Positions 1,843 through 29,628 of a DNA stretch of 32,000 bases are shown here, piece by piece. Source of the stretch: Candidatus Saccharimonadota bacterium (GTDB lineage: Bacteria; Patescibacteriota; Gracilibacteria; BD1-5; UBA2023); assembly GCA_046350815.1 (NCBI GenBank), contig JAXLZO010000001.1, positions 90,001-122,000 on the forward strand, read 5' to 3'. The notes under the pieces were generated by a model. It did no database searches and had not been told where the DNA came from. It worked only from the letters and a program-made list of their open reading frames with translations. The position numbers were made by a program, and so were the translations under genes. How positions within the stretch are numbered: the first letter of the stretch is position 1; the number at the start of each line of letters is the position of its first letter.

Positions 1843-3495
1843 TTAATAATTAGCAGTTCATGATATGGTACTTTGAACAGAAGATCAATCATCGTTGTAA
1901 CATGTCAGTGTTGTATTTACAATAGGATTGATGTGGCTTATTGCTACACTATAAGTACCGGTCGTTGCTACATTATTCTGATAACCTGAGAGATTACAAT
2001 ACTTGGTATAACTTGACTGCCACTGTATCTCTGCACTTTTATTACTGTTCGCAAGGCCAAGATTGTTTATTTGCAAAAGGTTGATTTTGGGTTCTGGTGG
2101 AGGTAAAGTAAGTTCCGCTGTAGACATAGTACCTCAGAGTCCATAGCAAGTTATCATATATGTTCTACTACCTGTGGTAGGCATCTCAAAATACTTTTTA
2201 TCGGAATATACCCCACTTATTCCTTGCTTAACTAAATCAATCTCCTGTGTGTCATTACTCACAAAATAATAAGAATAAGAAGTATAAGGGTCGCTCACTA
2301 AGCTCTTAAAATTCTTCAATTGACATTTTTGTGCATTCGTGACAGACCAAGAAAGTGTAGCGGGAATCATCTGAATGTGATCTCTACTAACGAAGTGTCT
2401 ATAATCGGTCCTATCTGCACTCAAGAGAATAGTTGGTCTCTGTGGGTCAAGAACTTGTACAGTGATAGATTTTGATGTTGATCACTCTCAATTGATACAT
2501 GTAAGCGTATAGGTTTGAGAGCTTGTGAGATTTGTGAGTCTTTCAAATTCATAATTTCCAGTAGCCTTTGACCCCGACCAATCATTACTTGCCGTACAAG
2601 ACGTAGCATTCGTTGTCGACCATATCAGGACAGTCGATCAATTGTATGCTACAGTATTGCCGCTCGCACTGAAAGAAACAATCGGTAGATTCTTTGTTGC
2701 GACAACCACGGATGTTGAATCGACTTGACTTTTTGTATTCTTATTGATACAACGAATCACAAAGGGTCCAATATTACCGGATGCGGATCAAACACTTATG
2801 GCAACACCACTTGGTACCAAATATCATCCGGATGTGTTCGTCGCATCTAATCCAGGCGATCATTGAATAAAGGAACAAGACTCGAGGTTCTCACCGATAG
2901 ACCAATACAAACTGAAGGAAGATTGCTTATCAATAATTGGTGAGCTTGGTTGTAAAAGAATTTCATCTGGATTCGGCTGTGTCGAGGACGAAGTTCCGTT
3001 CTGTGTCGAGGACGAAGTTCCGTTCTGTGTCGAGGACGAAGTTCCGTTCTGTGTCGAGGACGAAGTTCCGTTCTGTGTCGAGGACGAAGTTCCGTTCTGT
3101 GTTGTGGACGGAGTTCCGTTCTGTGTCGAGGACGAAGTTCCGTTCTGTGTTGTGGACGGAGTTCCGTTCGGTTGTGTGATTTGTGTTATTTGCTGAAATA
3201 TTTGTTGCGTGGCTGCATTTACGATACATCGAGGTGTGCCATCTCCTTCAAAACCTATAATAACACCGTTGGGACAACTTTGTCAGGTGGTTGCGTCTCC
3301 AAAAGCATTTCGAAAATAATTCATCATTGTGCCACCTTCAGCTTCTCCTGCTGGAGCCGAATTTGGCCAGGTAATCGGTGTATTTGCCCATACAATGGAG
3401 CCGGTAAATACGACGCCAAGAGCCACACTACATGTACCAAATGCCACAAGTCATTTGGTCCATTGCGATTTTCGTCACTTTCAGATGAATTTCAT
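1843..3495 (-). CDS. secreted or surface protein: N-terminal signal anchor, Ser/Thr-rich octapeptide repeat linker, four Ig-like modules
   Basis: ATG at 3495 gives MKFIGKGRKSQWTKGLVAFGTCSVALGVVFTGSIVWA. This is followed by QNGT(S/P)S(S/T)T x8 and then four roughly 85-110-aa modules, each ending in a ...TY.LTC(I/Y)N-like strand (for example WSTTNATSCTASNDWSGSKATG...TYTLTCINGEGS). It is one open frame in code 25 with TAA at 1843-1845. Standard-code fragments 2134..2424 and 1885..2127 share its frame. Confidence 0.7.
2979..3170. repeat. 8 x 24-bp head-to-tail tandem repeat inside the surface-protein CDS
   Basis: Unit is gtgtcgaggacgaagttccgttct. Copies 1-5 and 7 are identical. Copies 6 and 8 are the variant gtgttgtggacggagttccgttc(t/g). 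It encodes QNGTSSST / QNGTPSTT on the minus strand. Confidence 0.95.
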
Positions 3496-3551
3496 AAAAA
3501 ACAAATAATACTACTTTGCTCAGTGTAACATAAGAAAATCGAAATTGCAAA

Positions 3552-3595
3552 AAAAACATACAAATCATCTTGTAAAAGATGATTTGTATGTTTTT
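3552..3595. terminator. intrinsic terminator (19-bp perfect stem)
   Basis: aaaaacatacaaatcatct (3552-3570), loop tgtaaa, agatgatttgtatgttttt (3577-3595). It lies downstream of the 3655..4317 gene. Confidence 0.8.
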
Positions 3596-3654
3596 AGTAA
3601 GTATTATCTTATCACCCGATACGGTGTGTTTTCAAGGAGATATATTCTCGGAGA

Positions 3655-4317
3655 TTATCTCAATTGCATCGCGGGTTTCACTTCCTTGTAGTACAATTCC
3701 TTTGGCACCTCAATAATCACAGCTCTTCCATCAAAGCTCGTAAGAAACCGCACCATGCTCTGGTTATCTGGATTGACTGGATTAATAAAGAACGTTCGTC
3801 CTCAGAGTGCTGTAGTTTCCGTAGTTGTATAGAGCTCACCGATAGCGCTTGGGAGTTTCTCACGTACTGTGTTGTAGTTTGCTCAACAGACTGTGACAAT
3901 CAGTCCATTATCAGCCCTATAGGTTGTTGTCGCGATGAGACGAGATAGTGTGAGGAGCACACGTGATCATTTTGGATCTACTTGAAGTTCTGTTGAGCCA
4001 AATATTTTCACGAGTGATGGTGGTAATGCAAGGGACTTTGCATTCGTGTTATCTTCTTTATTTTCTTGTTTTTGTGGGTTCTCAATGGGTTTTGTCTCAG
4101 ATGTCTTTGATGGTACTACACTACTTGTACTCGATAATAATGATTGTCTCCCATCCTGAAACCCTATAGGAATCTGTCCTGTTTGTTGTGATGGTTGACT
4201 GAGACGCTCTGCGAGAGAAGTAACCTGCTTACGATAATCTGGTGAAAACCAAGACATGAGCAGGTTTACAAAGAAAAAAGCGAGAAGCGAATAAATAAGG
4301 ACAATTCCCGTGCGCAT
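3655..4317 (-). CDS. hypothetical membrane-anchored protein
   Basis: MRTGIVLIYSLLAFFFVNLLMSWF is an N-terminal TM segment, followed by a Ser/Thr/Gln-rich linker. The frame continues through TGA 3967-3969, 3883-3885 and 3802-3804 to TAA at 3655-3657. I recognise no family motif. Confidence 0.6.
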
Positions 4318-4344
4318 GTGGATAATAAAAGCTCTCTCAACAAA

Positions 4345-4896
4345 TTAGTGAGAGCGAATGCTTGCAAAATCAAGCTCTACTGGCGTTTCACGTCCAAGGA
4401 GATTTACGCTTACTGTTACCTTTCCAACAGTCTCGTCAATCTTGGTTATCACACCTTCGGATCCCTCAAATGGAGCTACTGTAATTGTCACGATATCGCC
4501 AACTTGATACTTGATATTATAGGTTGCACTTTGTTCAGAAAGCACCCCTTTGAGACGTTCAAGCTCTTCACCACGAACTGGAACTGGTACAGTACCAGCA
4601 CCCAGAAACCCAGTTACATTTGGAGTATTACGAACAATATACCAAGATTCATTCGTCACAAGCATCTTCACGAGAATATATCCTGGAAAAATATTCTTCT
4701 TACGTACGGTTTGTTTTCCAGCTTGAGAAATATTGATCGTATCATGAAGCGGAACAAATACATCTAAGAGAAAATTCTCAAGACCAAATGCCTCACGACG
4801 CTGCATAAGAGACTGACGAACATTCTCCTCAGTTCCAGAAATTACACGGATGACATACCAATCACCCTCTTCAGCAGAAATGCTATCGAAAAACAT
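4345..4896 (-). CDS. nusG: transcription termination/antitermination factor NusG
   Basis: ...GDWYVIRVISGTEENV...IFPGYILVKM...TPNVTGFLG... plus a C-terminal KOW block (YQVGDIVTITVAPFEGSEGVITKID). TAA stop at 4345-4347. Classic secE-nusG order. An ATG at 4896 is preferred over the TTG at 4911. Confidence 0.9.
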   Translation of the reverse strand: MFFDSISAEEGDWYVIRVISGTEENVRQSLMQRREAFGLENFLLDVFVPLHDTINISQAGKQTVRKKNIFPGYILVKMLVTNESWYIVRNTPNVTGFLGAGTVPVPVRGEELERLKGVLSEQSATYNIKYQVGDIVTITVAPFEGSEGVITKIDETVGKVTVSVNLLGRETPVELDFASIRSH

Positions 4897-4898
4897 AT

Positions 4899-5297
4899 TT
4901 ATTGTGCTCAAGAATTAGAACGTGTACCAGTTGAGGACGATGGAGATACAAGATTGGCCCCTGTCATGCTTCCTGTTGCTGTTATTGCACCAGTTGATAG
5001 AGTTACACCACTTGCCGAGAGAAGCTTGTTAATATCAAAATCTTCTGGGAGATTCGATTGCGTTGTACTATCTTGAATATGTAATTTTTCACGAATGATA
5101 TCTCGAGCTCCAAAAAGTGATTCTCGGAAAGCAATACCAATAATTGAGAGAAGAATGGTCATACTAATAATTACTCCAAGAGTAATTAAGAGGTATTTGA
5201 TAGCATCAGGGCGACTTGGCCATGCAACATGTTCGAACTCTTTGACAGAATTTGTCAAAGGTGAAAATAATGAAGAACTTTCTTTTTTCTGTGACAT
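4899..5297 (-). CDS. secE: preprotein translocase subunit SecE with a long C-terminal extension
   Basis: MSQKKESSS..VKEFEHVAWPSRPDAIKYLLITLGVIISMTILLSIIGIAF matches the SecE (V/L)xWP + TM pattern. The track stop at 4908-4910 is TGA, so in code 25 the frame runs three more codons to TAA at 4899-4901. It sits immediately upstream of nusG. Confidence 0.8.
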
Positions 5298-5353
5298 AGG
5301 AATTTTTGCGATTGAGTATAGGAAAACTTGAAAAGAAGTCAAAACAGAACTCG

Positions 5354-5375
5354 AAAATCCCCACATGGGGATTTT
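5354..5375. terminator. intrinsic terminator overlapping the stop of the giant ORF
   Basis: aaaatcccc (5354-5362), loop acat, ggggatttt (5367-5375). The TAA of the giant gene is at 5375-5377. Confidence 0.65.
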
Positions 5376-8300
5376 TACTCATAAATTCCATTAAAACGGT
5401 AACATGTTCAAGAACCATTAGGACAGGTATCCGAATAAATAATTCAAGGAAGTCACCAACACGTCGTTTGTCCATTATTTTTGAGTGCACATGTCTGGTA
5501 TCCACCGACTATTGCAATCTCAGTCACATCTGAAAGTCCGATTGGAACAGCTGTTTGACCATGATCATTCGAACCCCAGCACTCCACCGTCCCATCATTC
5601 TTAACTACACATCCATGTTGATAACCAATATTGAACTTAGACACATTAGTAATAGCTGGAATACTGGAATCAACAGTAGGAGATCCACTCACGTTATACT
5701 GCCAACATACCAATCGAGAATTAGGTTGTTGAATAGCACAAACATCATTTGTTGTTCACCAATGAGTACCAACCAAATTGGTCAAAGAAGATGTTCATGG
5801 AACAACAGATGCGTATGAATTATAGTTTTCACAAATCGCTCAGCCACCTGATTTTAATCAGCAAAGATGATGTAGATTTGTTATCTGAACAATATCATAA
5901 AAGGTACTAGATAGGTCAGTTCCATTGCCATAACTCGATCATCACCAACAAAGAACGGTATGATCCGATCGAATAACACATGCTGATGCAGGATAACTTT
6001 CAGAAACAGCAACTTGCAAAATACCTGATAATCAAGATGGCATATTTGCAGCTATATCTCACCAACATTGAACATCACCATCGGTGCTCAAGGCACACCC
6101 ACCATATTGTCAATTTTGAATCTGATGAAAGGTACCAGAAAGCGCTGGTGTTGTATCAGCCCATATATTGATGCCACAATTAATATGATTAGAGAGATAT
6201 GTTTCCATGTGATGAGAATTACAGAAACGTGGAACATTTTCAGCAAAATTAAACTGATCTGGGGTGAGTAGCATGGTATCCAGAGGACTTATAGGAGTAG
6301 GAACATTAACCGGATGACCATTACCATCATCGTCCAGAACTCCATCATCATTCATATCATAGAGTGTTTTATCATCTAAATAACCACACGTCAGACTTTG
6401 GTCAGAATTAATTCTACAAACTTCTGGATATACAGGACTAAACCATGGACTCCATTGTTTTGTACTACTCATGTTTTGGTCGTTAAACACGACATTTGGT
6501 AGATTCATCTGAAACTCTCAAGGCACATCTTGGAGGGCACCTGTCAATGGATGAAAACAAGTTATTGTCTCATCATTTTTTAGTACACACGTACTATCAA
6601 TATCTGTCTCATGATGGTCAAAATTTGGAGCACTATCGATGTCAAGGATATTATTTATAAGTGTATTCGGTATGGATCAATTGTTATTAACAAAAGACAG
6701 AGCGTTGATATGTGATATATCGGTTGTATTTGATGAGTTATTCGAGTAAAATCCCCAAGAAATAACGTTACCATCAGATTTTCTTGCATAAGTTCTTCAA
6801 GCCGTATTAGTAATCTGTGTTACTCAAGAAAGACCCGAAGGAACATGCGTCTGACTATATCAACTACTTCACCAACATTGTACAGTACCATTATTTTTAA
6901 GAGCACACACATGCTCTGCTCATACTGATACCTGCTTTACATTCGTCACATTTGACGGAACATTTGTTTGGCCATATTGGTTATTACCCCAACAAACGAC
7001 ACTGCCATCGTTGCGAACAACACACAACGTTGATATCTTTGGAACCATTGTTGTTCCTTGATCTACACTATTAAACCCAGATATTTGTCGCACCGAGTCA
7101 ATCGGAAAGTTTGGCTTTGATGCTGACCAAGAGAATCACCAACAAACCAGCTGACCGTCAGATTTTACCGCACATGTTTCCCCATTGAGTACAAGAATTT
7201 GTATTACACCTGAGAGTCAACCCGGTACATTATTTTGCCCAAGAGCATTGTCTCATCACCAACATGCAACCGTACTATCAGAGCGAATAGCACACTTATG
7301 ATCACTTGCAACACCAATTCTCTTCTGATCATATGAAGCTACGTTCGATCCAGTTACTCATTGTGGAATCTCGAGCAGATTTTGAAATGAAACCTGGGAT
7401 CGGTCATTTCGTCCCCAACATACGATAGTACTATCAGATTTGAGAGCACAAGTATGAGCTCAACCGGCAGACACTTCAGCAATATCACTCAGACCTGATG
7501 GAGTGTTATTTTGCCCATAGCTATTCGATCACCAACAACTCATGGTGCTATCAGATTTGAGGGCACAAGTATGTCCATATCAAGAAGAAATACTTACTAC
7601 ATCGGATAGTCATGATGGTATATTTGTTTGACCGTTGCCGTTATACCCCCAACAGCGAACAAATCCTGTTTGGATCAAGCTACAAGTAAAATTCGAACCA
7701 GCTGATACCTCCATAACTCCTGAAAGGTCTCATGGAACCAACGATTGATTCGATCTGTTGTCACCCCAACATTCCACTGTTTTATCAGATTTGAGGGCAC
7801 AGGAATGATAGGATCAGAGTGAAATACTAACAACTCAGGTGAGTCCAGGAGGAACATCTATTTTTCCATATTCATTATCTCACCAGCATTCGACGGTTCC
7901 ATCTGATTTGAGGGCACAAGCATGATTATCTCATACGGAAACAGCAGTTGTAGAGCTCAATCATAATGGAACCTCGAGGAGACTACAATCAACAGTACTA
8001 TCGGATCGTAGGTTACAGGTATTCATACTACCAGCAGCAACTTGAACAACGTTGTTCTGTATAGTATCATTATTTGCAGAACATAGTGCTGATCATGATC
8101 GTAGAACACAGGTATGGTCAGCTCACAGACTTATATTTGCACCTTCATGAACAAAACTCGTAATCGTAATCGGTCGAAGATCCTCTGGAATATCCGTTTG
8201 TCCGTTATCATTGTTTCACCAACAAACGACCGAATTATCAGACTTGAGGACACAAACATGATACGATCCAACGGTGATATCAATAACGTTAGATAATCAA

Positions 8301-11300
8301 CTTGGTATATTTCATTGACCATTGCTATTATCTCACCAACATTCCACGGTTCCATCAGATTTAAGTGCACACGCATCAGTATTACTATTTGCCACCTTCA
8401 CGGCATTCGTTATTGGTGATGGAGGTGTTACGGAGTTACACATAACACTTGTATCATATTGCACAGAGCATATTTCTATACCCAACATGGTAGATCAAAT
8501 TGTATCAACCTCATTACGAAATCAAAGAGAATTTCCCCCAATACATTGCATTTTTCCATTTGTTTGGAGAACACACGTAGTATAGTTGCCTGCAACTACT
8601 TCAATAATATCATGATTCAAACCATCTGGAATACTACTTTCAGAATAATTATTACTTCACCAACACTCTACCGTATTATCAGATTTAAGTGCACAGGTAT
8701 GACCATCTCATGCGGAGATTTGGACTACATTCGTAAGTCAAATGGGTACATCGTTTTCACCAGAATAATTAAATCACCAGCACTCTATTGTTCCATCTGA
8801 TTTGAGGGCACAGGTGTGAGTTTGACCACTCGTTATCTGAATAACGTCATTGAGTCCTGATGGTGGTGTTGCAAGACCTAAATAATTATTTCACCAACAT
8901 TCTACTGTCTCATCAGTCTTAATAGCACAACTAAATGCATGTCCAGCAGAGATTCTCTGATCTTCATAACGAGTGCTGGCGAGATTAAGTGGTGTGAATC
9001 CAGAACCAAATGGAACTGGGGAGTCACTCTCTCATTCCCAATTTGATCACCAACAGATAACCTGATTACTCGCATCTCTCGCACAGACATGAGTAGGACT
9101 CGTAGCAATATCAATGGCAGAAAGTGAAGATGGAATCATATTTTCACCATGTATGAAGGTGCTTTGAGTAAAACATTCAACACTACCATCAGCCTTCATA
9201 GTACAAAGATTACCTCCTCCAGCACTGATTTTCACGACATTATCCACTCAGATATCACCAGATATTGTTCACCAGCAGAAGACTCGACCAGTCTCACGGA
9301 GAGCACACGTATAAGCAGATCATGCAGCAAGCTGTGCAACACGAGTCAAAGTCGGAACATCCGTTTGTCCCTCACTATCAGATCACCAACATGTGAGAGT
9401 TCTATCAGATCTCAAAGCACATGAATGATAGTCCCCACTTACAACTTGTACCACATCAGTGAGTCATGAAGGTGGAGTGGTTTGCCCATTATCATTGAGA
9501 CCCCAACATTCGACGGTTCCATCTGATTTGAGAGCACAGACATGGCTTGCTCCTGCTGAAATCTGAGTTACATTTGAGAGTCATGAAGGTGTGGTGGTTT
9601 GTCCATCGTCATTAAGTCACCAACATTCGACGGTTCCATCTGATTTGAGAGCACAGGTATGAGATGCTCAAGCACTGATTTGAGTGACATTCGTGAGTCC
9701 AGATGGTACGGTAGTTTGCCCATCAGCATTGAGACCCCAACATTCCACAGTAGCATCAGATTTGAGAGCACAGGTAAACTGATAACCAGTCGTCATACCT
9801 TGATCCTCAAATACTGGTTCTGTTATTGGACTACTTGCTATTCCGCCAAACCCGGGTGGAACTTCGGTTTGACCATCCATTCATTGTCACCAACATGCAA
9901 TGGTATTATCCGATTTGAGGGCACATGTATGAGATCCTCACATAGAGGTGCTAATTTCAGTAACACCAGAAAGTGTCATTGGCACGTCGGCTTGACCATC
10001 ACCATTATCCCCATCACACTCGACACTACCATCAGTATGAACCAAGCAAGAGTAATATTCTCCGGCACTGATATGAGCAACATTCGAAGCTCCTGAGAGA
10101 TCCCCATTCGATCACCAGCAAACTACCGAATCATCAGTCTTAATAGCACAAATATGTTCATCACCAGCTGATATTTGCTTCACAGTACCAATGTCACTTG
10201 GGAAATTATCTTGTCACGATCACATATTTCACCAACACTGCATTCGTCATGTATCTTTGAGTGCGCAAGCAAAATTCCAACCAGTTGCAATTTGAACAAT
10301 ATGATTTAGTTCGCTTGGCACATTTGTTTGTCCATCACTATTATCTCACCAACACGTAACGGTTCCATCAGATTTGAGGGCACATACATTATTATAGCCA
10401 ACACTCATCTGAACAACACCACTTAATCATACCGGAACATCCGTCTGTCATCACGATGGGTCTCACCAACATGATACTATTCAGTCAGATGAAAGAGTAC
10501 ATGCAAAACGATATCATGCACTGATCGCTATAACATTATCGAGACCGATAGGTATATCAAGCTGTCATGCGTCATTTGCACCCCAGCACTCTACCCCACC
10601 AGTTGAGGTAATTGCACATGTAAAGTTATTACCTGTTGTGAGGCGATGATCGTCAAAAACAACTGAATTAAGGATAACAGGAAAGTTTTGAAGCTCTTCA
10701 GGAACCGGTAAGTATCCAAAAAGATTCCAGCATACAACACTACTATCGGATTTGATAACACAAGTGTGTTCCCTGCCAGCGGATATTTGAACTACGTTTG
10801 AAAGATCAGGTGGAACATAATTTGAGCTCACACTCCAACCATCACTATTCCAATATTCTCACCAACACTCGACGCTACCGTCGGATTTGAGTGCACAATT
10901 ATATGAAGAATCAGATGAAATTTGTGTAACATCCGCAAGTCATGGAGGTACATATGCAGCCGGGTTTTCTCATTCCATATTTATACCCCAACACTCGACG
11001 GTCGCGTCGGATTTGAGGGCGCAAGTATGGTATTTACCAGCTGATACCTGAGTAATATTAGAGAGTCATAAAGGAATATCGATTTGACCATTATCATTCG
11101 AACCCCAACACTCGACGGTCGCGTCGGATTTGAGGGCGCAAGTATGGTATTCTCAGGCGGAGATTTGAACTACATTGGTCAATCATGACGGCGGAGTAGA
11201 TTGTCAGTACCAATCAGCTCCAACACACTCTACGGTTCCATCAGATTTGAGGGCACAGGTATGTTCTCATCAGGCGGAAATTTGTGTAACATCAGAGAAG

Positions 11301-12337
11301 CTTCAAACAGCAGTTCGTCAATCTTCATTATCATATCCCCAGCAAGCTACTACTCCATCCGATTGAAGTGCACAGCTATGATAATACCCAACTGATATTT
11401 GCACCACATCAACGAGACCTGATGGCACATCTGTTTGACCATCATAATTATCTCACCAGCATACCACACTCTGATCTGCTTTCAGAACACAAGAATGACC
11501 TTGTCCAACTCATACCATCATTCCCGATGTATCAATCGTATTTCCCGATCAAGTTGACCCGGTGTTGTTATTGACAGGTGGAGTCAGTCATTGTTGCACT
11601 GGAGCATTGGTTCCTTTATCAAGTACGATGCCAAGTCGATCTCCCCAAACATACGGGTATCTCTTCGTGTAGTCCGCATCAGCCGCATTTGCTTCATCGG
11701 ATATATTCTTCCAGAGAAGAGGAGTTTGATTTTCATGTTCCGGATTCTCAAGATACGCCAAAAATTGACTCTTGTCACGATTCTGTCAGAGACGATAGGT
11801 AAAGAGGGTTTGATCCTGAGGATCTACCGTATCACTATAGTTGAGATTACCAGCAATAGAAGAGTCAGCATATCACTGCCAACCGAGATTTTGATTACTG
11901 AGAGTACCTGAAAAGGTTCATCCGGCAAGCAAAGAATCAACTCAACCATCTCGTGTGAGAGCTAAAAGTCTTGATCCAGTCAGAGTACTCAGCTGTGTGC
12001 TGCCATCTACAAACACAGCATATTGTGACGTGGCACCCGATATAGTCAGATCAATCGTACCACTTCCACCACCGATAGAGATAGGAATAGCCTGATAGGG
12101 CATAGGAAGAACATGAAGGGAAGCAGCTTGAAGTCGAGTCGCATCATGCAACTGTCGTATATTAGCAATACGCTGACTATCTCGAGCTGTGGCCGTGGTA
12201 TTTCCGAGGAGCAAAAATCACACAACTGTAAGAATTGCAAGTATTGCAATAATCACAAGAAGTTCGACGAGAGTAAAACCCGCAACTGTATGGTGCGAGT
12301 GATTTCTCTCCCGAAAATATAGAAACCGTAGTGTCAT
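5375..12337 (-). CDS. giant (2,320 aa) modular type IV pilin-like protein: prepilin N-terminus fused to about 38 RCC1-like beta-propeller blades
   Basis: ATG at 12337 gives [20 protein letters not shown]|[32 protein letters not shown] (G-1, F+1, E+5). I checked every codon of this frame by hand from 12337 to 5375. There is no TAA or TAG, about 90 TGA, and TAA at 5375-5377. Standard-code fragments 11942..12214, 10565..10831, 9668..9880, 9047..9247, 6110..6508 and 5453..5713 all share the frame. The repeated unit is ..H(T)[25 protein letters not shown]. Confidence 0.85.
5450..11480 (-). repeat. array of about 38 RCC1/ATS1-like blade repeats (protein-level and partly DNA-level)
   Basis: Recurrent plus-strand string tca/acc cca aca .. 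(reverse complement TGT TGG TGA/GGT = C-W-G). The period is about 117-160 bp. Includes a 50-bp exact duplicate at 10985-11034 and 11102-11151. Confidence 0.85.
12203..12337 (-). other. class III (prepilin-type) signal peptide and N-terminal hydrophobic helix of the giant ORF
   Basis: A 20-aa basic leader ends in Gly, followed by [25 protein letters not shown]. This is the prepilin peptidase cleavage/methylation motif G|FTL(I/V)E. Confidence 0.8.
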
Positions 12338-21620: not shown

Positions 21621-22379
21621 GGAGAGAGATGGAAAATGAGGAGCGGATTATACTTCAGAGAACAAAAATTGCAATAAATGGGAGAGAGGGAATTTGTATT
21701 TTCTTTTAAAATATGCTATATTCTTCACAGAACAATCTAGATGTTATGAATTCAGTCAACTACGGGCAAAATTTTGTAGAGTATCTCACATACTTGAAAA
21801 ACCATATCTCCAAGAAAATATTCATCTTCACCGAGTAACGTACACCACCTACATTGTATTTATCATCATTCTAGTATTTATCATCATTCTAGTATTTATC
21901 ATGATGATAGTATTACAGGGATTCTTTTTTATTATTCTTGTGGGTCTTTTTTATTGAATACAAAAGTCAAAACAAATAGAAAAGCGTGGTATAATCAGTG
22001 ATTTTTTCGCAGCATTGCATGCATATATTCATATAAAACCAGAACGATTCCAAGAAGCATATATCTGACTTCAATGATATCACCAGGTACTCTATCCACT
22101 CATATTCATACAACAATTTCTCAATCCGCAACTTTTGATAAAACCATCTGCATACATAGACTGCACATTATCAAAGAATCATAACAGTATAATTCAACCA
22201 CAAGCAATACCACAAAAAACACAAGATTATTGAGGGCTCTACTGAAATTTTTGAACGCAAAAAAATATGTCCGAAAAGAACTTCACAACATATGAAGAAA
22301 ACAAACATCTCTCTATTCAAGAACAGGTGGAAAAATTTTTTCAAGAACAGAAAACGGGAGCAAAGAGTAAAAAACAATA
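21619..22379 (+). CDS. hypothetical membrane protein (code-25 ORF only; start uncertain)
   Basis: Reading frame 1 has no TAA or TAG for about 253 codons of very AT-rich sequence, with six in-frame TGA, and ends at TAA 22377-22379. The hydrophobic core is IVFIIILVFIIILVFIMMIVLQGFFFIILVGLF. The ATG at 21619 abuts the gyrB start on the other strand, and a TTG at 21694 is an alternative. No family motif recognised. Confidence 0.4.
21856..21909. repeat. 3 x 18-bp tandem repeat
   Basis: gtatttatcatcattcta x2 (21856-21873, 21874-21891), then gtatttatcatgatgata (21892-21909). If the surrounding ORF is real it encodes VFIIIL/VFIMMI. Confidence 0.9.
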
Positions 22380-22516
22380 ATTCGCTTGCGCTTTGCATAT
22401 TTCGTGTATAATCTGAAGTGAGGAAGGGCTATCTTCCGTGTTTACTGGGCTCATGATAGCTTTGGTCCGAGTTTAATTACTTGGAATGAGTGGGTCTCTG
22501 TTTTGTTTTTTGTTTT

Positions 22517-22792
22517 ATGGTACAAGGTACTAAGCTCTACGTTGGAAACCTCTCTTGGAAGACCAGCGATGATTCACTTCGAGCATTTTTTGCTTCAACT
22601 GGTGATGTTACTTCAGCAAGTGTTGCACTTGAGCGTGATACTGGACGTTCTCGTGGATTTGGTTTTGTCGAAATGGCAACTCCTGAGGCTGCACAAGCTG
22701 CAATCGACGCACTCAACGAGCAAGAGCTCGACGGTCGAAAAGTATTCGTTTCCGAGGCTCGTCCTCGCGAAGATCGCCCTGCACGATACTAA
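22517..22792 (+). CDS. RRM-type (RNP-1/RNP-2) RNA-binding protein
   Basis: MVQGTKLYVGNLSW (RNP-2) ... RGFGFVEM (RNP-1) ... RP.EDRPARY tail. TAA at 22790-22792 and no in-frame TGA. Visibly GC-richer than its neighbours. Confidence 0.9.
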   Translation: MVQGTKLYVGNLSWKTSDDSLRAFFASTGDVTSASVALERDTGRSRGFGFVEMATPEAAQAAIDALNEQELDGRKVFVSEARPREDRPARY

Positions 22793-22797
22793 TCGTT

Positions 22798-22839
22798 AGA
22801 GATAATAAAAACCGCCAATCGGCGGTTTTTATTATCTCT
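22798..22839. terminator. strong intrinsic terminator (19-bp perfect stem)
   Basis: agagataataaaaaccgcc (22798-22816), loop aatc, ggcggtttttattatctct (22821-22839). Confidence 0.85.
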
Positions 22840-22953
22840 TTTTCATTCTTTATTAAGTGATGAGTTGATTTGTAGAATATTTGTCAAGCTGCTTTATTGC
22901 AGAAGGGGGGGTAATGTGCTATCATTTCTGTGTTATTTTATTTTATATTTTAT

Positions 22954-25900
22954 ATGGCATCACCAGACAAATATAGCCCCTCCGTAGAACAAAAAGATTG
23001 CCCACCAGAGCTCAAAGTGAAACTCAAGTGAAAAAAGAATGAATGGCAGGACAGAGCAAAGTCTTTTAATACAAAATCTTTTGAAGAACATAAATCAGAA
23101 ATATCAGATGTCAAAAAGGCAGCTGATACTTTTATGGCTCAGTCAGTACTTGAAAACATCACCCTCAATGCTGATGACAAGGCATTACTCAAATACATGC
23201 GAACTCTCAGCGTGGACAAACCCATAGACATATCCATTATGCAAACAATGCTTCATGATGTCTGTGACAAAACCATTGCAGTGGATGGTCGAATGGGCGA
23301 ACAAACTATAACTGCCATGAAATTGGCAATGGAAAAATTTAAAAGTAAGATCCCTGGTTACCAGGAGTGATTAGTTGTAGGAGCCAAGATTGATGCTGCA
23401 ATAGCACCTGTTATTGATATTCCCTCTGTGAAGATACCAGCAAAACCAGCGCAAGTATCAGGCGATAGTTTGTCTGCGACAGAAAATGATTTTTCCATAT
23501 CAATACAAGAAAAAGTAAATAGTTGCAAAACATTACTAAAAGCAAACTATCCAGGATTGTGAGTCCAAATCAATGAAAAATGAGATCTTTTCATAAGACA
23601 AGATGTGATAGGAAGTTCCGATACGAAACTTCAAAAAATTGCAACTATTGATCTCTCAAAGACAGAAGATATTGCCTGGGATAATATACGAGTTGCTCTT
23701 GAAGAATATATAGCAAAACAGAAAGTCAGTGCACCAGCTGTTATATCAACACAAACGGAGGCAATTTCTACAGACAAACAGACCGTAACGAATGAGTCAA
23801 ATCAGATCGATGTTAAGGCTGAACAAACCAAAAAAATTCAGCTATCTCCAGAGCAAGATTCTGATGATAATCTCAAAACAATAGAAGCAGACTGGAACAA
23901 AGTAATGAATCAAGCAGAAGAATATGCAAGGAAACAATGATTGATTTTAACAATGGTGAAAACAGGTGCTGTTGTCAAATCTATGGGAGCATCAAAATTT
24001 AATCCGATTGAAATTTATGATATTTACGTAAAAAAAGAGGGGCAAACCAAAGCAGAAAAAATAGGAACATCCCACCCTGTACATTTAGAGCGAAAAGTTG
24101 ATATTCAGGGAAAAGTAAAAGATATACAAGTTTTGGTTGATAAGTATCTAAAGCATGATGCTGTCAAACCACAAGAAGTAAGCCAGGAAGCCGTGGATAA
24201 AGCTTGGTATGAAGGTTTTGACGAAGCATCAAACTATGCCAAAGATAAATGATACATCCTTACAAACCAAGCGAGCGAATTGACAGCAAAAGGTTGAAAT
24301 GCGAGCCGTCCTAATATTGATAAAGGGAAACTTCAAACAATTGCTCTCGTAAATAAAAATAAAAAGGAAAGACGAGAACTTTGAACAATTTCAGTAGAAA
24401 AGATTCACCTTGTGTCGATAAAAACCCCTCAGGAAATAAGGGATGAAATACAAAAAAGGATAGATGAATCACTTGCAAGAACAATGACAGAATCACAAGA
24501 AAATAAGACACGGACAGAAAATATCACAAAAATCGATACCCTCCTTCAAAAAATGTGATATTCCTTAGATTATGTTGACGGTAAAGCAGGAAGAATGTAT
24601 AAGAATCAAAATAATGAAAGACTTCAAGTATTTTGATGATTCTCTTGAGTTCCAAAAGATCATACTCTCACAGATTCAGAAATAAGATACAATTTATTAC
24701 AAAACAATAAGCAAAAAGATTTGCAACAACAAATTGATAACGCGATGAACGGTAAAATAAACTCTGAAGCAAATGAACAGCATTCTGAGAAAATATTCAT
24801 ATCAAAAAAAGCTCTTTCTGAATTTAAAACATTAGGAATTACTCTCACAAAACAAGACGATGGTATCCATGGAGATTTTGATCAAAATAAACATTTTATG
24901 GGTCTAAATACATCATTTGATAAGAGTGGAAAATTCATCAAAACCGAAGAATGGCCAGTGAGTAAAAAAGTATGAGAGGAATTTTTTATAGATAACAAGA
25001 CAAAATCTGTAACCTTTGAAAATGGGGTATTCACATTTATAGATAAAGATGGTTCAAAAATGACATCAGTGCTTACCGAAGTAAAAAACCAGCCGATGGA
25101 TCAAGAAATGATCAATAATTTCAAAAATGATGCCCCAAATTCTGTACAGGTTCTCTCAGCGACAGATTTAGAGATCAAGCTCAAAACAATAGCTCCGAGT
25201 GTTAAGACAAGATCATTTAATATAAAGAGCGCTGTAACAACGTGATTTGATGAGGTTCTTTGAGAAATTACTTTTAATGCAACTAAAGAAGATTCATTTA
25301 CAAAGATGCTATGGAAAGACGAGCGAATATCAGGAAGTATTATTGCGCAACTTGCATCTCGAGGATTTGTTCTTGATAATTGGATACAACCAGTTGCTGA
25401 TATAGAATCTCGTTCATGAGACAATGTTATGGTGATACCACATCCAGATGGAAAAGGTTTTGCAACGGTTTGTAAAGGTGGCGGAGTCCATGTTTACAAC
25501 AAGGATAACATAAACCCAAGTACGGTATTTGCACGTAAGCCAGTCATCTATCTCTATCCGATCAAGAAGACGAAAATCTCAGTATCAGTTGAACTCTCAG
25601 GTGCTGATATGATCACAGAATATCCAAGAACTACGAATGGTATATGGAAAGTGGAAGCATCACCGAAAGGAAACCTCGTTGATATATATGACAAGAAGAA
25701 ATACTCATACCTCTTCTGGGAAGCTGCAAAACATACAAGTTTTACGCTCAATCCGGAAAATACGGATTGTATTGCAAATGTCGATGTACAAACTTATCTT
25801 GAAAAGTCTCTCAAAACCCTTGGTCTCAATGCCCGAGAAATGAATGATTTTATGGTATATTGGCTCCCAATACTTGAACAAAATCCATACAGTCTTATCG

Positions 25901-26106
25901 AGTGGAAAACGACTGAATATACTGATATGGCAAAGCTGCATATTTCGCCAAAACCCGAAACACTTATTCGAATATTCATGGTCTTCAAATGATCAGAACA
26001 AATAGTAGCTACGAAGAACGTAGAGCTGCAGAAAACGAGACGAAAAGGATACTCCGTGGTAGAATGGGGCGGATGTAATCTCGATGAGAAGAACAATATC
26101 AAATAA
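22954..26106 (+). CDS. 1,050-aa hypothetical protein with an N-terminal peptidoglycan-binding-like module and a conserved-looking C-terminal domain
   Basis: Fragments 23134.., 23605.., 23941.., 24721.., 25060.. and 25429..25992 all lie in frame 1. I read every codon from 22954 to 26106 and found only TGA interruptions, with TAA at 26104-26106. ...LLKYMRTLSVDKPIDI..IAVDGRMGEQTITAMKLAMEKFKSKIPG resembles PG_binding_1 (xDGxxGxxTxxAvxxFQ). The C-terminus reads KPVIYLYP...YSYLFWE...LGLNAREMNDFMVYWLP. No signal peptide or TM segment seen. Confidence 0.7.
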
Positions 26107-26116
26107 TTATTTCCCT

Positions 26117-26284
26117 ATGAAAACCTATCAAAAAATGATCGAAGAGAAGAAACAAGAGCTCACCAATGAGCTCGAACTTTCTGATCAACTTGAGAACCTC
26201 AAGCATCTCTCGATAACGCTGGAACAATCACTCGAACACGACCAAGAAGTCCTCGAGGCGCATAAGAATATCACTAACATCTAG
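26117..26284 (+). CDS. small (55 aa) acidic coiled-coil protein
   Basis: ATG at 26117, MKTYQKMIEEKKQELTNELELSDQLENLKHLSITLEQSLEHDQEVLEAHKNITNI, TAG at 26282-26284. It sits between the 1,050-aa gene (10-nt gap) and the caspase-like gene (5-nt gap). Confidence 0.45.
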   Translation: MKTYQKMIEEKKQELTNELELSDQLENLKHLSITLEQSLEHDQEVLEAHKNITNI

Positions 26285-26289
26285 AATAT

Positions 26290-27594
26290 ATGTCAGAAGT
26301 TCCATCATATCAAGCAACTCGTGGGTTCGATCCGGAAATAGGTCCTGGCTACGACCCAAATGCGAAAGTGGAAGAAAAAATAGCTAAACCCAAAGATCCT
26401 CTCATAAAAACGGAAAAACTTGATAAAATCAAGTGATTAACGAGTACGGATTTACGTACAAATCTTCTGAATACTGACACATCCAAATTGAATCTCGAGA
26501 CGACAACTCGCTATCTTATTGCACTCACGCAAGAAATTAACATCGCAAAACTACAAAATCAAGATACAATGCAACAATTTCTTGGGAAATTTCAAGCAAT
26601 TCAAGAATCTTATCACAATCTCATCGGTTCATGAACCATTAGCGAATGATCTCAAAAACTTAGAGAACAAATAGAACTATGTCTGGAGTCTATTCAAAAA
26701 GGTCTAGAATCAAAAGATAAAGCACCATGATATATCTATGAACCACTTGAACAAGAACTTACAGAAATGGAAATAGACGACACAATAAAAAATGTCGATC
26801 AGCTCCTCAAAAATAAGCCATCTATGATATTCGTATGAGTAAATAAATACAACCACAATAGGAATATGAATCAAATGATGGCAAGATACTTAACAGCTAA
26901 TAAGCCGATTCCAAATTGGGAGTTGCGTGGTGCTGTGGATGACGCAAAAATTGTCGCTCAAAAAATTGAGTGATATCCATCATCAAACAAAGTAGAACTT
27001 CATGATGAGATGGCAACAAAAGAGGCAATTCTTAATGCCATAAAAACTTCACCATCAGACAAAGATATCTTCCTCTATATGTCCTGACATGGTGTGGATG
27101 GACACTTTGTACCTTATACAAAAGGTGTTATAAGTAATATGGATAAATCCGTTTTACAAATCATGATCAGTCCAGTGGAGCTATTTGAGGCAATCGGAAA
27201 AAGAAAGGCAGTTGTTATTGTTGATCATTGTTTTAGTGGTGATCTTGTAATGTCAGCACCAGACAATATCACCATTATCTGAGCAAGTGACTCTATGACA
27301 ACAGCACTAGATACTATCAAGAATGATAGTAGTATAAAATCAGAAAAAGGATTAGTAATAAGGAATGAAATAGTGACTGGAAAAAGAGAAAAAATACAGA
27401 TTGTAAAAGGAGAGAAAGTGATGAAAAGTGAGGATATCTTTTGATGAAAAGCAACCTTTGGTCTTACAGGTAATAAAAACATTCCACTTGATATCCGTTG
27501 ATTTGTAGACAGTGCAAGAGCAGTAAGTCATCTACGTGATCACAATCAACAACCTACAATCAATGCAGGAATAACAAGTAGCACAAATCTATAA
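26290..27594 (+). CDS. caspase-like cysteine protease (peptidase C14 / caspase-HetF fold) with an N-terminal helical domain
   Basis: ATG at 26290, frame 1, eleven in-frame TGA, TAA at 27592-27594. Hallmarks: MIFVGVNKYN, RGAVDDAKIVAQKI, catalytic His in IFLYMS[TGA 27085-27087]HG (YxSGHG), and catalytic Cys (27229-27231) in AVVIVDHCFSGD (DxCxSG). Confidence 0.85.
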
Positions 27595-27616
27595 GAAATA
27601 TTTCAAAGCTACTCAA

Positions 27617-27647
27617 AAAAATAGAGTGTCATTGGCACTCTATTTTT
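27617..27647. terminator. bidirectional terminator between the convergent caspase-like and kinase/HExxH genes
   Basis: aaaaatagagtg (27617-27628), loop tcattgg, cactctattttt (27636-27647). Confidence 0.75.
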
Positions 27648-29628
27648 CTATATCATTTCTATCTTGACTCTCATCAATAACATCCGCTGGCTCCGTCTTG
27701 ATACGATCCATCCATACTTGCTCTTCACCAAGAATATCACTTGGTTCAGTGTCAATACGATTCCTCCAAGCTCTCCGCTCAATCAGAGATGCGAACATTT
27801 TCCAATCAGAAACTGGAAGAAAAGAAAGAATCTCAATAACATTATCTCTTCCTTCTATTGTATTGCCATATACTCGCATAATATATGTAAGTATATCAAA
27901 CATGATCTCATCAAACTGAGGATGGGTATCTACCCTATAGAGGTCATCTATCAGAAAGATTCTTGTTATCTCTCGTATATCATCCCCATTCGAGAGATAA
28001 GCGATGATCTCCTCTTTGAGTTTCCAAAGAAGTCGATCTTCTTCCCTATCATCGGAGAATAATGCCTTGTTGATGGTGGCGTGTCTCGCCTCATGTATGA
28101 GCGCTCTCTCGTTTGGAGTTGTGATGATGACACTATATTTTTTTCAAGAATCAAGATATTTTCTCGTTGCGAATGCGCCCATTCTACCTCTTTCTTCTGG
28201 TATGAGAGATTGATTAAACGCATCTCGATCAGAAAAAACTACCCCAACAGCATTCCCTATGAGACATAACCGTGCATTCTTTGATGTAACCTCAGCAAGG
28301 TCTCAAAAACCATCGATTCAACCAAGAATTTTCTTTGGATCACCTCAGGAATATAAAAGTGCTTCGAGAGAATTCTCAAAACCATCTCGGTATATACCCA
28401 GAGATTCAAAAGCAATTTTCAGAATAGTTATTGTGAGTAATCTTTGTTGTTCTTGGGTGGCTTGACTAAAGAATAACGTCATATGATCAACAATCGGTAA
28501 CAAAGGCTGACGATCAAAAGATGATCGGATAAATCGAACCATAGCACCACCCAGTTCAAGTTGCCGAAGTATAACTTCTGAAATAGGAAGATGGAGAATT
28601 TTTGCCTTTGATTTTAGATCCTCATCCAATCGAATATTTTCAAATTCTAACATTCGACTGATACAAAATTCACTATAATCCCCCGATACTCCTCCAGAAA
28701 GACGTGGTGCTGAACCATGAATAACAGATAATATATTATTCTCGGGGAAATCAGCAAAATTTAATCATCAAACTTCCACTTTGACAGAAATATCAGAATC
28801 ATCATATTCCTCATTCTGAGGAGTTCTGATTGATATTTCTGTTGGTGTTCTCGTAGGTGTATCAATAGGTGTCGTATCCTTTATTGATAAATGAAGGTTC
28901 TGATGATCAACTATTGCCTGCGAAAGCCATAATATATCATCCAAATCTTTCTGTTTACATTGCTCAAAATATGGACTATTCTTATCTATACCAACTGGAT
29001 CAAATATAGAAAATTCTATCGTGCTCGTTCAACAGTTATTATCGATACGCATAAGGATATTTCACAAAATATCACCATGAGCAATACCTGCTTGATGATA
29101 TTTATCAATCGTATCAGAGAGCTGTTCGAGAAAGAGTGGAATGGTTATTTCAGTGAATTCTTCCGAATCATTACGATTGAGAATCTGCAATAGATTTGTA
29201 ATGTGCCAACCCTCAACCTTCTTTGTCACCAGAAATCATGCGTCTGCATGAAAAGTTATTGGACTAACAGTGTGATACGGATCAACACTATACATACTAC
29301 AAAGAACCCTATATTCCGCCTCAAAATCATCAAAAACCTGACCAAATAATTTTGGCACGGTTCTTTTCTTTTGATATTTCACGTAATAGTCATCAGGAGG
29401 ATACTTAACCGTGATTTTTCCTTCACCAACATTAATCATTCAATCACAAATACTCTTAATAGGTGGAATATACCCATGAGAACTATTTTCATTCACAGCA
29501 GATATATCCTGAAAAGACGAAAGAATATCCCAAACACGGGAGGCAGTATTTACTGGCATATCTGTGAGAATTTCATGAGGGATTACGGATCCTTTTTCAC
29601 TCCCGTACGATACTTGTTGATTTTTCAT
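27640..29628 (-). CDS. fusion protein: N-terminal protein-kinase-like domain plus C-terminal HExxH (zincin-like) domain
   Basis: I read each codon from 29652 to 27640 and found only TGA interruptions, with TAG at 27640-27642. The kinase-like catalytic loop is IAHGDIL[TGA]NIL (H 29077-29079, D 29071-29073, N 29059-29061). Also FSIFDPVG (DFG-like), ITVKY and FEAEYRVL upstream, a TPxxTP linker, then VIITTPNERALIHEARHA (HEARH = 28081-28095). ATG at 29628, with an alternative TTG at 29652. Confidence 0.75.

Follow-up and report, generated by a model that had tools for sequence, protein, structure and literature searches.

A 2,320-residue modular pilin with seven predicted tandem RCC1-type propellers, a candidate host-contact adhesin of a code-25 Gracilibacteria cell

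What is a protein that starts as a type IV prepilin and continues, in one reading frame, as a long array of propeller blades, and what might it do for an ultrasmall bacterium? The question is raised by a locus in the window analyzed here (the whole 32-kb stretch of DNA), for which a first-pass annotation had proposed a 2,320-aa uninterrupted code-25 frame at positions 5375 to 12337, a prepilin N-terminus and an undescribed architecture serving host contact. These coordinates are exact, but they have to be read on the minus strand, where the following features were recognized or predicted:

5375 to 12337, minus strand: complete code-25 ORF, 2,320 aa plus TAA stop (ATG at 12337, TAA at 5377..5375)
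12278 to 12337, minus strand: predicted leader peptide, aa 1-20; its last residue is the -1 Gly of a class III (prepilin) signal
11588 to 12277, minus strand: predicted pilin module, aa 21-250, with a hydrophobic alpha1 helix (~aa 23-74) and a beta-sheet head
11522 to 11587, minus strand: linker rich in Gly, Ser, Thr, Asn and Pro, aa 251-272 (from sequence; pLDDT <50)
10718 to 11521, minus strand: propeller 1, aa 273-540, 7 blades of ~39 aa (self-built blade HMM, Pfam RCC1_2/WD40_RLD); 65% identity to ortholog L087
9857 to 10645, minus strand: propeller 2, aa 565-827, 7 blades (blade HMM, Pfam); 86% identity to L087
9017 to 9799, minus strand: propeller 3, aa 847-1107, 7 blades (blade HMM)
8186 to 8959, minus strand: propeller 4, aa 1127-1384, 6 clear blades and 1 degenerate (blade HMM)
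7382 to 8140, minus strand: propeller 5, aa 1400-1652, 7 blades (blade HMM); 79% identity to L087
6554 to 7324, minus strand: propeller 6, aa 1672-1928, 6 detected blades and a degenerate 39-aa gap (blade HMM); 65% identity to L087
5444 to 6430, minus strand: propeller 7, aa 1970-2298, 7 weaker blades and an 80-aa insert at aa 1990-2069 (blade HMM)
5375 to 5443, minus strand: C-terminal tail, aa 2299-2320, plus stop; 30% identity to L087

Whether so long a frame is real depends on how TGA is read. The ORF (6,960 nt) contains 93 in-frame TGA codons and no TAA or TAG in 2,320 codons, close to the earlier estimate that about 90 TGA codons split the gene under table 11, with which ORFs in the region reach 145 aa at most. 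The two other frames of the same strand and span hold 50 and 117 TAA/TAG codons, from which the probability of a stop-free frame arising by chance is ∼e^-50. TGA falls at conserved glycine sites (CWx against CWG, SAx against SAG): in the blade match columns, 47 of 62 TGA codons lie in four consensus-Gly columns, while the Trp column holds none, all 38 Trp being encoded by TGG. In a codon alignment with L087, a syntenic ortholog of 2,360 aa with 84 TGA codons, TGA is opposite TGA 45 times, GGN 45 times and TGG never. Since TGA marks conserved Gly positions, never Trp, and swaps with GGN in the ortholog, the genetic code is code 25 (UGA = Gly; Gracilibacteria/SR1). An identical protein is already deposited at NCBI under the organism name Candidatus Gracilibacteria bacterium (MFO0763341.1, “hypothetical protein”, on a 1,283,673-bp contig).

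An artefact (a pseudogene, a misassembled repeat array or a chance frame opened by taking TGA as sense) might be suspected of a region that is repetitive at the protein level and breaks under table 11 into pieces of ≤145 aa. The confinement of TGA to glycine positions and the difference in stop content between frames speak against it, as does the scarcity of repeats at the DNA level: the only tandem repeat in the gene is 117 nt × 2.7 (positions 9461-9773, within propeller 3), which indicates that the blades are old and diverged. Logan assemblies from three independent runs are 100% identical over window positions 7453..3121, making an assembly artefact unlikely in the C-terminal third. The ortholog is full length and keeps the whole architecture with a dN/dS of 0.21, and a second strain keeps an intact frame as well. 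An artefactual origin is thereby effectively refuted, and the locus is a real, intact coding gene under purifying selection.

The N-terminus carries what had been described as a canonical prepilin signature, and this description held. A polar leader ends in HHTVAG and is followed directly by FTLVE (AG/FTLVE, the slash marking the predicted cleavage site), giving F at +1, Glu at +5 and ∼20 hydrophobic residues, with ARDSQRI further downstream. The sole hydrophobic segment of the protein is aa 14-51, with no other transmembrane segment. The prepilin family N_methyl (PF07963) scored 23.7 bits on aa 1-272 (cut-off 21.2); on the full-length protein the match, at residues 19-39, was just under the cut-off (20.2 bits). 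TIGR02532 scored 14.3 on the window protein (under its cut-off of 16.3) and 17.4 on the ortholog (above it), and the weak NCBIfam matches were all to pilins or pseudopilins. The leader shares only 25% identity with that of L087, but from F21 onward identity rises to 96%; a step of this kind, placed right at the predicted cleavage site, is what a cleaved leader should produce.

Beyond the signal, the predicted pilin module includes a variable loop (aa 94-138) and the conserved motifs ARDSQR and YLENPE. A pilin-family profile compared with solved structures matched PilA, PilE, PpdD, MshA, GspG and geopilin through alpha1 only. An AlphaFold2 (AF2) model built on an alignment of 81 sequences (pLDDT 73.3, pTM 0.66) shows a “lollipop” with a 52-residue helix (aa 23-74) followed by five strands (aa 81-88, 149-156, 180-184, 190-196 and 227-232). 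Structure prediction thus returned a pilin-like order of elements but no PDB counterpart, as Foldseek found no match with E<1 for the model, and an earlier AF2 model had reached a pLDDT of 42; fold-level support for the pilin module is therefore support from topology. Judged from its sequence, the N-terminus is a complete prepilin-type pilin module, and the succession of pilin module (aa 21-250), linker (aa 251-272) and stretches matching RCC1_2 and WD40_RLD makes the protein a modular pilin in the sense of Raynaud et al. (2021; PMC8179133).

This pilin module has many relatives. Searches of the sequence library returned 3,218 (E≤1e-3); the 235 of these with E≤1e-10 are mostly pilins of ∼400-600 aa with fibrinogen-like, lectin or LRR modules. 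N_methyl was found in 64 of 81 sequences scanned (80 relatives and the query), and the cargo modules of those 80 relatives included Fibrinogen_C (13), Laminin_G_3 (9), LRR and others. The module therefore belongs to a large CPR pilin family that carries interchangeable, adhesin-like C-terminal modules.

The cargo of the protein in the window is of a different kind. The repeats had been called RCC1-like blades, and profile searches agree: Pfam RCC1_2 (PF13540) matched in 35 stretches (E = 2.3e-269), as did WD40_RLD (PF25390) in 10 stretches (E = 2e-201), and the solved relatives of propeller 3 are BLIP-II (3qhy_B, E = 1.3e-39), ACR4 (4e-22), UVR8 (5e-16) and RCC1 (2e-13). The original count of about 38 blades was too low. 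The blade HMM detected 47 here and 49 in the ortholog, each of ∼39 aa and grouped 7 × 7, and in both proteins conserved linkers of 15-41 aa separate the seven-blade groups; that before propeller 2 is 24 aa long with the motif VFxD...TTGxxFTC. Each unit has the length of BLIP-II. At the level of sequence, the cargo is thus shown to consist of about 47-49 blades predicted to form seven tandem seven-bladed propellers of RCC1/BLIP-II type. The mature protein would have a mass of ∼242 kDa and a pI of 4.4. It contains 98 Cys, all in the propellers and two conserved per blade, and 35.9% Gly, Ala, Ser and Thr (GAST); the Cys content, acidic pI and GAST value of about 36% support a putative extracellular location. 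Inspection of the C-terminal tail revealed neither a hydrophobic anchor nor a recognizable sorting motif.

The two ends of the protein evolve differently. The mature pilin module is 91% identical to that of L087 (dN/dS 0.09), against 46-86% for the propellers, the most variable being propeller 7 (46%, dN/dS 0.35). A second strain, L001, shares 98.9% nucleotide identity over window positions 9515..8185 and then diverges with its frame intact: its recombination breakpoint is the C-terminal edge of propeller 4, so that the swap falls exactly at the propeller 4/5 linker, and propellers 5-7 together are only ∼35% identical. A conserved anchor, diverging propellers and the replacement of the distal three in L001 argue for adhesin-like evolution.

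How would such a protein be used? The reading we lean toward, with somewhat better than even confidence, is that of a modular minor type IV pilin of a code-25 Gracilibacteria cell, with the propellers as a host-contact arm. The protein would be inserted via Sec, its ∼2,050-aa cargo folding outside the membrane, and the 20-aa leader would be removed by prepilin peptidase. The alpha1 helix and conserved head may then dock it into a pilus, probably at the tip or in the priming complex, since a cargo of this bulk appears not to fit into the filament body. No secretin is listed among the components of patescibacterial pilus loci described to date, which means that a large subunit at the tip would not have to cross an outer-membrane pore. 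Displayed there, the propeller string could act as a long, multivalent ligand-binding arm making first contact with the host cell surface, with distal propellers setting specificity and being traded among strains through recombination at the linkers. The earlier proposal of a pilus-associated host adhesin is a reasonable one, for which PilX2 and Streptococcus sanguinis PilB are precedents. A more far-reaching version, which we offer tentatively, is that this is the largest known type IV pilin, a tip or priming subunit of a predatory or epibiotic Gracilibacteria cell, bearing a host-recognition string of seven propellers ∼30-40 nm long, in which the pilin serves as a universal adaptor and the propellers, especially the distal three, are swapped at linkers to retarget host range. 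To our knowledge, incorporation into a filament is established for no pilin of similar size.

The genomic setting bears on the main competing explanation. The gene lies between a GT4 gene upstream and secE-nusG downstream, and no T2SSE, T2SSF, PilMNO, prepilin peptidase or second pilin is encoded within the 32-kb window; Gracilibacteria are generally reported to encode and express type IV pili. Related Gracilibacteria modular pilins of ∼440 aa are orphans as well: no T2SSE gene lies within 10 kb of them. A gene standing alone among housekeeping genes would suit a surface fibril that is never polymerized, whose class III N-terminus only inserts and retains it in the cytoplasmic membrane, or in a short pseudopilus-like stub, while the propellers form part of a fibrous coat. 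A fibrous surface has been attributed to giant surface proteins in Vampirococcus (PMC8080830), and a cargo of ∼220 kDa is without precedent for a filament subunit. Such a fibril may be likened to the giant membrane proteins of Vampirococcus or to archaeal binding proteins with class III signals. What weighs against it is that not the helix alone but also the globular head (aa 75-250) is conserved (89% identity to L087, dN/dS ∼0.09), and that this head is common to hundreds of pilins, which a mere membrane anchor would not need; moreover, the studied analogues, S. sanguinis PilB and TM7x PilX2, act through pili. We consider a non-polymerizing fibril rather unlikely, yet a serious competitor. 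Much less plausible is a role for the propellers mainly as tight protein binders or inhibitors that, tethered or delivered by the pilin end, would neutralize enzymes of the host or of competitors where the cells meet: the closest solved relative of each unit is indeed the seven-bladed BLIP-II with its ∼40-aa blades, but the similarity extends to the shared fold and repeat consensus and not to the BLIP-II binding surface, no beta-lactamase-related context was found, and proteins with this fold include receptor domains (ACR4, UVR8) as well as a lectin-like adhesin (PilX2).

Among known systems, the nearest counterpart comes from Nanosynbacter lyticus TM7x (Saccharibacteria): its thin T4P-2 pilus has PilX2 as a minor pilin, and deletion of PilX2 approximately halves host binding (bioRxiv 2024.11.25.624915; PMC11623550). 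Compared by its published description, PilX2 is likewise from Patescibacteria, combines a pilin lollipop with a seven-bladed RCC1 propeller, is a proposed tip adhesin and has a similar GAST content (36.4%, against 35.9% here). It differs in having one propeller and not seven, in lacking a predicted PilD signal peptide where the giant pilin has a canonical G/FTLVE, and in being encoded in a pilin locus, whereas the giant pilin gene is an orphan beside secE-nusG. PilB (vWA) and PilC (lectin) of S. sanguinis share the plan of a pilin module (IPR012902/PF07963), a short linker and a non-pilus module, with a predicted tip location and adhesive role. PilY1/PilC-type tip adhesins of type IVa pili are also large beta-propeller proteins of analogous action, but they are not pilins, dock onto a minor-pilin complex and carry a single propeller of a different family (IPR008707). 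Identity with these was rejected, as the giant pilin has a pilin N-terminus and no PilY1-type propeller (no match to Pfam Neisseria_PilC/IPR008707 at E≤0.1).

Among propeller proteins, BLIP-II (PDB 3qhy/1jtd) resembles the cargo in its ∼40-aa blades, seven per domain, but is a single soluble 28-kDa propeller without two Cys per blade and without a pilin end. Extracellular proteins annotated “alpha-tubulin suppressor-like RCC1 family protein” in Verrucomicrobiota, Planctomycetota and Oscillospiraceae reach 1,300-4,000 aa with many propellers (25-41% identity). Their propellers are joined to Ig, FN3, cadherin or other domains, and for export or anchoring they rely on different signals; PF07963 was absent from all of the best 120 giant multi-propeller RCC1 proteins. 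The giant proteins of Vampirococcus lugosii (1,392-4,163 aa; PMC8080830), a code-25 CPR relative, are interaction-rich and proposed to act in host recognition; that account mentions WD40, TPR and PKD domains and, in the passages covered, reports no pilin N-terminus.

Novelty lies in scale. That known modular pilins graft one small module onto the pilin, as the first-pass annotation had it, was overstated: Raynaud et al. counted 264 architectures, some of them rich in repeats, among >1,200 modular pilins, and their Dataset S1 lists IPR012902 fused to PF13540/IPR000408 (RCC1) (PMC8179133). With RCC1-modular pilins catalogued, PilX2 known and giant RCC1 proteins common, the architecture cannot be called undescribed in kind; its size is nonetheless extreme, far above the largest modular pilin found in the literature, the case of 860 aa with 12 short repeats named by Raynaud et al. 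(PMC8179133). Experimentally characterized modular pilins carry one module. With 2,320 aa, 242 kDa and ∼49 blades, predicted to make up seven complete propellers, the giant pilin marks a new extreme among modular pilins. It is probably an outsized form of the host adhesins that related ultrasmall bacteria are known to bear on their pili.

Proteins of this kind sit in an annotation blind spot: this one carries the label “hypothetical”, translations of its relatives were stored wrongly under code 4, and a 132-aa fragment represents its cluster, so that routine searches miss them. If mounted on a pilus, a cargo of ∼220 kDa would stretch the load a type IV filament is presumed to bear and extend the modular-pilin concept from one module to seven. 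The contrast between a conserved pilin anchor (91%) and a fast-diverging, strain-exchanged propeller cargo suggests a division of labor, and from the strain-specific swap of the distal three propellers it can be predicted where in the protein host specificity is set. Should retargeting by propeller exchange prove true, it would parallel, on a pilus, the way phage receptor-binding proteins diversify. The gene is thus a concrete candidate for how code-25 CPR bacteria (Gracilibacteria, Absconditabacteria) may find and hold their hosts.

The giant pilin gene lies on the minus strand of the window, running from an ATG at 12337 to a TAA at 5377..5375, and comprises 2,320 sense codons, of which 93 are TGA and none is an in-frame TAA or TAG. 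The uninterrupted code 25 frame that the first-pass annotation had placed at 5375-12337 was thus recovered in full; a plus-strand reading of the same interval contains 22 TAA/TAG, which puts the gene on the minus strand. The other two minus-strand frames across these 6,963 nt contain 50 and 117 TAA/TAG, which excludes an open frame arising by chance (~e^-50). Translation with table 11 gave only fragments of ≤145 aa, in keeping with the earlier remark that about 90 TGA codons would hide the ORF under that table. An identical 2,320-aa protein is deposited in GenBank as MFO0763341.1 ([quoted passage not shown]) on a 1,283,673-bp contig, and three sequencing runs, each assembled independently, gave contigs 100% identical to window positions 7453..3121.

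In a translation with TGA marked, TGA positions corresponded to Gly in other repeats (CWx versus CWG, SAx versus SAG, SxL versus SGL). Codons were then counted by column for 47 blades aligned to a profile made from the giant protein itself: four consensus-Gly columns took 47 of the 62 match-column TGA codons, and the Trp column had none, all 38 Trp being TGG. Compared with codons of the ortholog on L087 (a syntenic metagenome contig), TGA stood opposite TGA in 45 cases and opposite GGN in another 45, and was never opposite TGG. These patterns indicate that the giant gene uses code 25, as originally proposed, with TGA as its commonest Gly codon (93 of 255). Code 4 (TGA = Trp) was ruled out by the lack of TGA in the Trp column and of TGA/TGG pairs with the ortholog. 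Scans of the 32-kb window for tRNA and Rfam families returned no match, hence no tRNA-Gly(UCA) within the window.

Segments of the giant pilin (all encoded on the minus strand), with identity to the L087 ortholog where calculated
aa 1-20 (12278-12337), minus strand: leader, ends at the predicted prepilin cleavage site; 25% identity
from aa 21, minus strand: hydrophobic start of the mature protein, Glu at +5, sole hydrophobic segment of the giant protein
to ~aa 250, minus strand: pilin module with ARDSQR, DP..Y.Y and YLENPE; alpha1 96% identity, head 89% identity
aa 251-272, minus strand: linker, G/S/T/N/P-rich; 91% identity
aa 273-540, minus strand: propeller 1, seven-blade group; 65% identity
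aa 565-827, minus strand: propeller 2, seven-blade group; 86% identity
aa 847-1107, minus strand: propeller 3, seven-blade group; 63% identity
aa 1127-1384, minus strand: propeller 4, seven-blade group; 53% identity
aa 1400-1652, minus strand: propeller 5, seven-blade group; 79% identity
aa 1672-1928, minus strand: propeller 6, seven-blade group; 65% identity
aa 1970-2298, minus strand: propeller 7, seven-blade group with an 80-aa insert; 46% identity
aa 2299-2320, minus strand: C-terminal tail without anchor motif; 30% identity

The prepilin N-terminus with Glu at +5 described in the first-pass annotation is present in the translation; PF07963 scored 23.7 bits on aa 1-272 (cut-off 21.2), the full-length giant falling just below that cut-off at 20.2 bits. 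TIGR02532 scored 14.3 for the giant against a cut-off of 16.3 and 17.4 for the L087 ortholog, a gap due to the leader (12278-12337 versus L087:10001-10060), as the mature N-termini are identical; the sub-cut-off score probably explains the “hypothetical” label given by NCBI. Weak NCBIfam matches of the giant were nearly all to pilins or pseudopilins. When aa 1-272 served as query for an exhaustive HMMER search across 1.84 billion representatives, 3,218 relatives passed E ≤ 1e-3 and 235 passed E ≤ 1e-10; a word-indexed homology search with the N-terminus gave 13 matches, all weak. Relatives usually aligned over two stretches (about 16-92 and 145-265), and therefore the globular head is homologous, not the alpha1 helix alone. 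The motifs ARDSQR, DP..Y.Y and YLENPE are common to the giant’s pilin module and short CPR pilins, R56, D172, Y181 and E197 are invariant columns in an 81-sequence alignment, and the module has no Cys. A profile of this family matched solved structures of geopilin, PilA, PpdD, PilE, MshA, GspG and PilA5 through alpha1. AF2 modeling of the module was uninformative with a 14-sequence alignment (pLDDT 42); with 81 sequences (pLDDT 73, pTM 0.66) the predicted structure had the lollipop topology: a helix at 23-74 precedes five strands, and confidence is low in the loop at 94-138. A Foldseek search of this model against the PDB found no significant match. The structure prediction for the N-terminus that had been suggested as a check is therefore consistent with a pilin fold without demonstrating it. 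Evidence for a pilin front end is good from sequence and weaker from structure.

In the propeller array (aa 273-2298), an HMM made from the giant’s own blades detected 47 units of ~39 aa, to which two degenerate blades are added, so that the earlier count of ~38 blades, which is near the 35 stretches scored by Pfam, is corrected to about 49. The same 7 × 7 grouping was repeated in the L087 ortholog, where 49 blades were detected. Identification of the repeats as RCC1-like propeller blades was upheld by Pfam matches to RCC1_2 (E = 2e-269, 35 stretches) and whole-domain WD40_RLD (E = 2e-201, 10 stretches). Two Cys are nearly invariant in each blade (46/47 and 45/46), giving 98 Cys in the propellers, and linkers of 15-41 aa with the common motif ..VF.DQ...TTG..F[TS]C separate the propellers of a mature protein of about 242 kDa and pI 4.4. 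One propeller unit searched against all PDB sequences matched BLIP-II best (E = 1.3e-39), followed by ACR4, UVR8, RCC1/SRM1, HERC2 and RPGR. BLIP-II is a seven-bladed propeller with ~40-aa blades, which the 39-aa period and ~270-aa length of the giant’s units match, and we infer that each seven-blade group would close into a ring.

The L087 contig (ERZ724510 NODE-120) keeps the gene order of the window from gyrB to nusG, including the GT4 gene, the giant gene and secE, and its ortholog (2,360 aa, 84 TGA, no TAA/TAG) is 64% identical to the giant overall. The step in conservation between the two proteins coincides exactly with the predicted cleavage site. Nei-Gojobori dN/dS was 0.09 in the pilin module, 0.10-0.35 in the propellers and 0.21 overall (dS near saturation); thus, the whole giant is under purifying selection, strongest in the anchor. 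A second, closer strain, represented by contigs L001, L002 and L005, has flanking housekeeping genes 92-93% identical to the window at the nucleotide level (secE/nusG, 91.8%), and its propellers 3-4 are 98.9% identical, above the flanking secE/nusG. At window position 8185/8186, in the propeller 4/5 linker, this strain switches to three other propellers of only ~35% amino acid identity, and the frame remains intact past the switch with 57 TGA (L001:1-4099, L002:1-2676). By this comparison, the distal three propellers are exchanged in a cassette-like manner; no spare or silent RCC1 cassettes were found elsewhere in the 32-kb window.

Among 81 sequences scanned with Pfam (the giant and 80 relatives), 64 had N_methyl; C-terminal modules of the 80 relatives included Fibrinogen_C (13), Laminin_G_3 (9), Flg_new, LRR types, SBBP or Reg_prop propeller repeats and others, and none carried RCC1. 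The closest relatives (P0162-P0165) are deposited as code 4 translations with W for Gly, even “AW|FTLVE” at -1, and therefore come from code 25 organisms; in two of them this pilin module carries LRR modules. The best 120 homologs in a full-length search were all RCC1 giants, and none had PF07963; giant multi-propeller RCC1 proteins are common, and these homologs, unlike the giant here, lack a pilin end. The 90% cluster of the giant is represented by a 132-aa fragment in the protein collection, so the absence of pilin-RCC1 giants there is weak evidence, and code 4 mistranslation together with fragment representatives makes representative-based searches blind to such proteins. The pilin-family profile matched at least 80 prepilin loci in GTDB genomes, mostly of Planctomycetota and Verrucomicrobiota; none of the loci listed had an RCC1-blade fusion, and the source genome was not among the matches listed. 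A large family of CPR proteins of ~400-600 aa also begins with this module and continues into Fibrinogen_C, ConA-like lectin, LRR or other modules; its Gracilibacteria members (L007:10049; L008:7202 and 8601, the latter two in tandem) are orphans. The family resembles a set of exchangeable pilus adhesins.

The giant gene’s neighbors, read with code 25, are by annotation housekeeping or envelope genes: Lgt, rhomboid, FKBP lipoprotein, two unknown proteins, NusG and SecE on one side, and GT4 transferase, DedA/VTT protein, SLT transglycosylase, PGI, GalU, HAD protein and GyrB on the other. A promoter and terminator scan gave nothing above chance; an AT-rich hairpin with a T-run at about 12429-12402, after the upstream GT4 gene, seen by eye, and a weak TTGCAA-17-GATACT (8/12 matches) 5' of the giant ATG were not counted as evidence. 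Elsewhere in the window, a 550-aa protein (1843-3495, minus strand) with an N-terminal hydrophobic segment and a 24-nt repeat × 8 encoding TQNGTSSS (tandem repeat 2977-3169) had no Pfam match; a related strain has a 643-aa gene in the same position, and this is probably another variable surface protein. A gene-poor region of ~1.3 kb upstream of gyrB (21650-22950) contains an 18-nt × 3.3 tandem repeat (21856-21914). GC falls to 0.35-0.37 at ~22900-31000, where large ORFs without family match (1,050 aa, 22954-26106, plus strand; 674 aa, 27640-29664, minus strand; 383 aa, 29793-30944, plus strand) and a weak caspase-like ORF (434 aa, 26290-27594, plus strand) are located.

Taken together, sequence comparisons establish the giant as a protein of secreted type under selection, in which a prepilin N-terminus and conserved pilin head are joined by a flexible linker to seven Cys-rich propellers. 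We lean towards a pilus tip or priming subunit with a host-binding propeller arm, on the basis of established type IV filament biology and two experimental precedents. Of these, Streptococcus sanguinis PilB is a modular pilin (Raynaud et al., PMC8179133), and PilX2, a minor pilin of Nanosynbacter lyticus TM7x, has a single RCC1 propeller, and its deletion cuts host binding by half (PMC11623550). The giant would be inserted into the membrane Sec-dependently, prepilin peptidase would remove the leader, and alpha1 and the head would dock into a pilus, most plausibly in its tip or priming complex, since the filament body has no room for 220 kDa of cargo. The TM7x pilus loci are described as PilB/C/D/M/N/O/T with no secretin listed, and a bulky tip subunit would therefore meet no outer-membrane pore. 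The propeller string could then act as a long multivalent arm binding host surface ligands, with the distal propellers, variable between strains, setting specificity.

The main rival, in which the class III signal merely anchors a surface fibril, appears possible but rather unlikely. No pilus machinery genes and no second prepilin motif occur within the 32-kb window, and pilin clusters of other Patescibacteria adjoin a T2SSE ATPase; ~440-aa modular pilins of other Gracilibacteria are likewise orphan genes, and Gracilibacteria in general are reported to encode and express type IV pili. The BLIP-II match of the propellers would also suit an inhibitor role like that of BLIP-II, which we consider distinctly improbable. 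The sole DNA-level repeat stretch of the gene is at 9461-9773 (117 nt × 2.7, 79% identity), and therefore the array is old and not an assembly product; that the ORF is an artefact is exceedingly improbable.

No description of a seven-propeller prepilin was found in the literature, and the architecture, which the first-pass annotation had called undescribed, is so in scale and combination and not in kind: RCC1-repeat modular pilins are included in Dataset S1 of Raynaud et al. (PMC8179133), and PilX2 provides functional evidence for an RCC1-propeller pilin in a CPR bacterium. The novelty lies in a canonical prepilin that bears seven complete propellers and is almost three times as large as the biggest modular pilin that Raynaud et al. 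cite. In one Gracilibacteria lineage, conservation of the giant extends to at least three alleles, and its cargo is modularly diversified.
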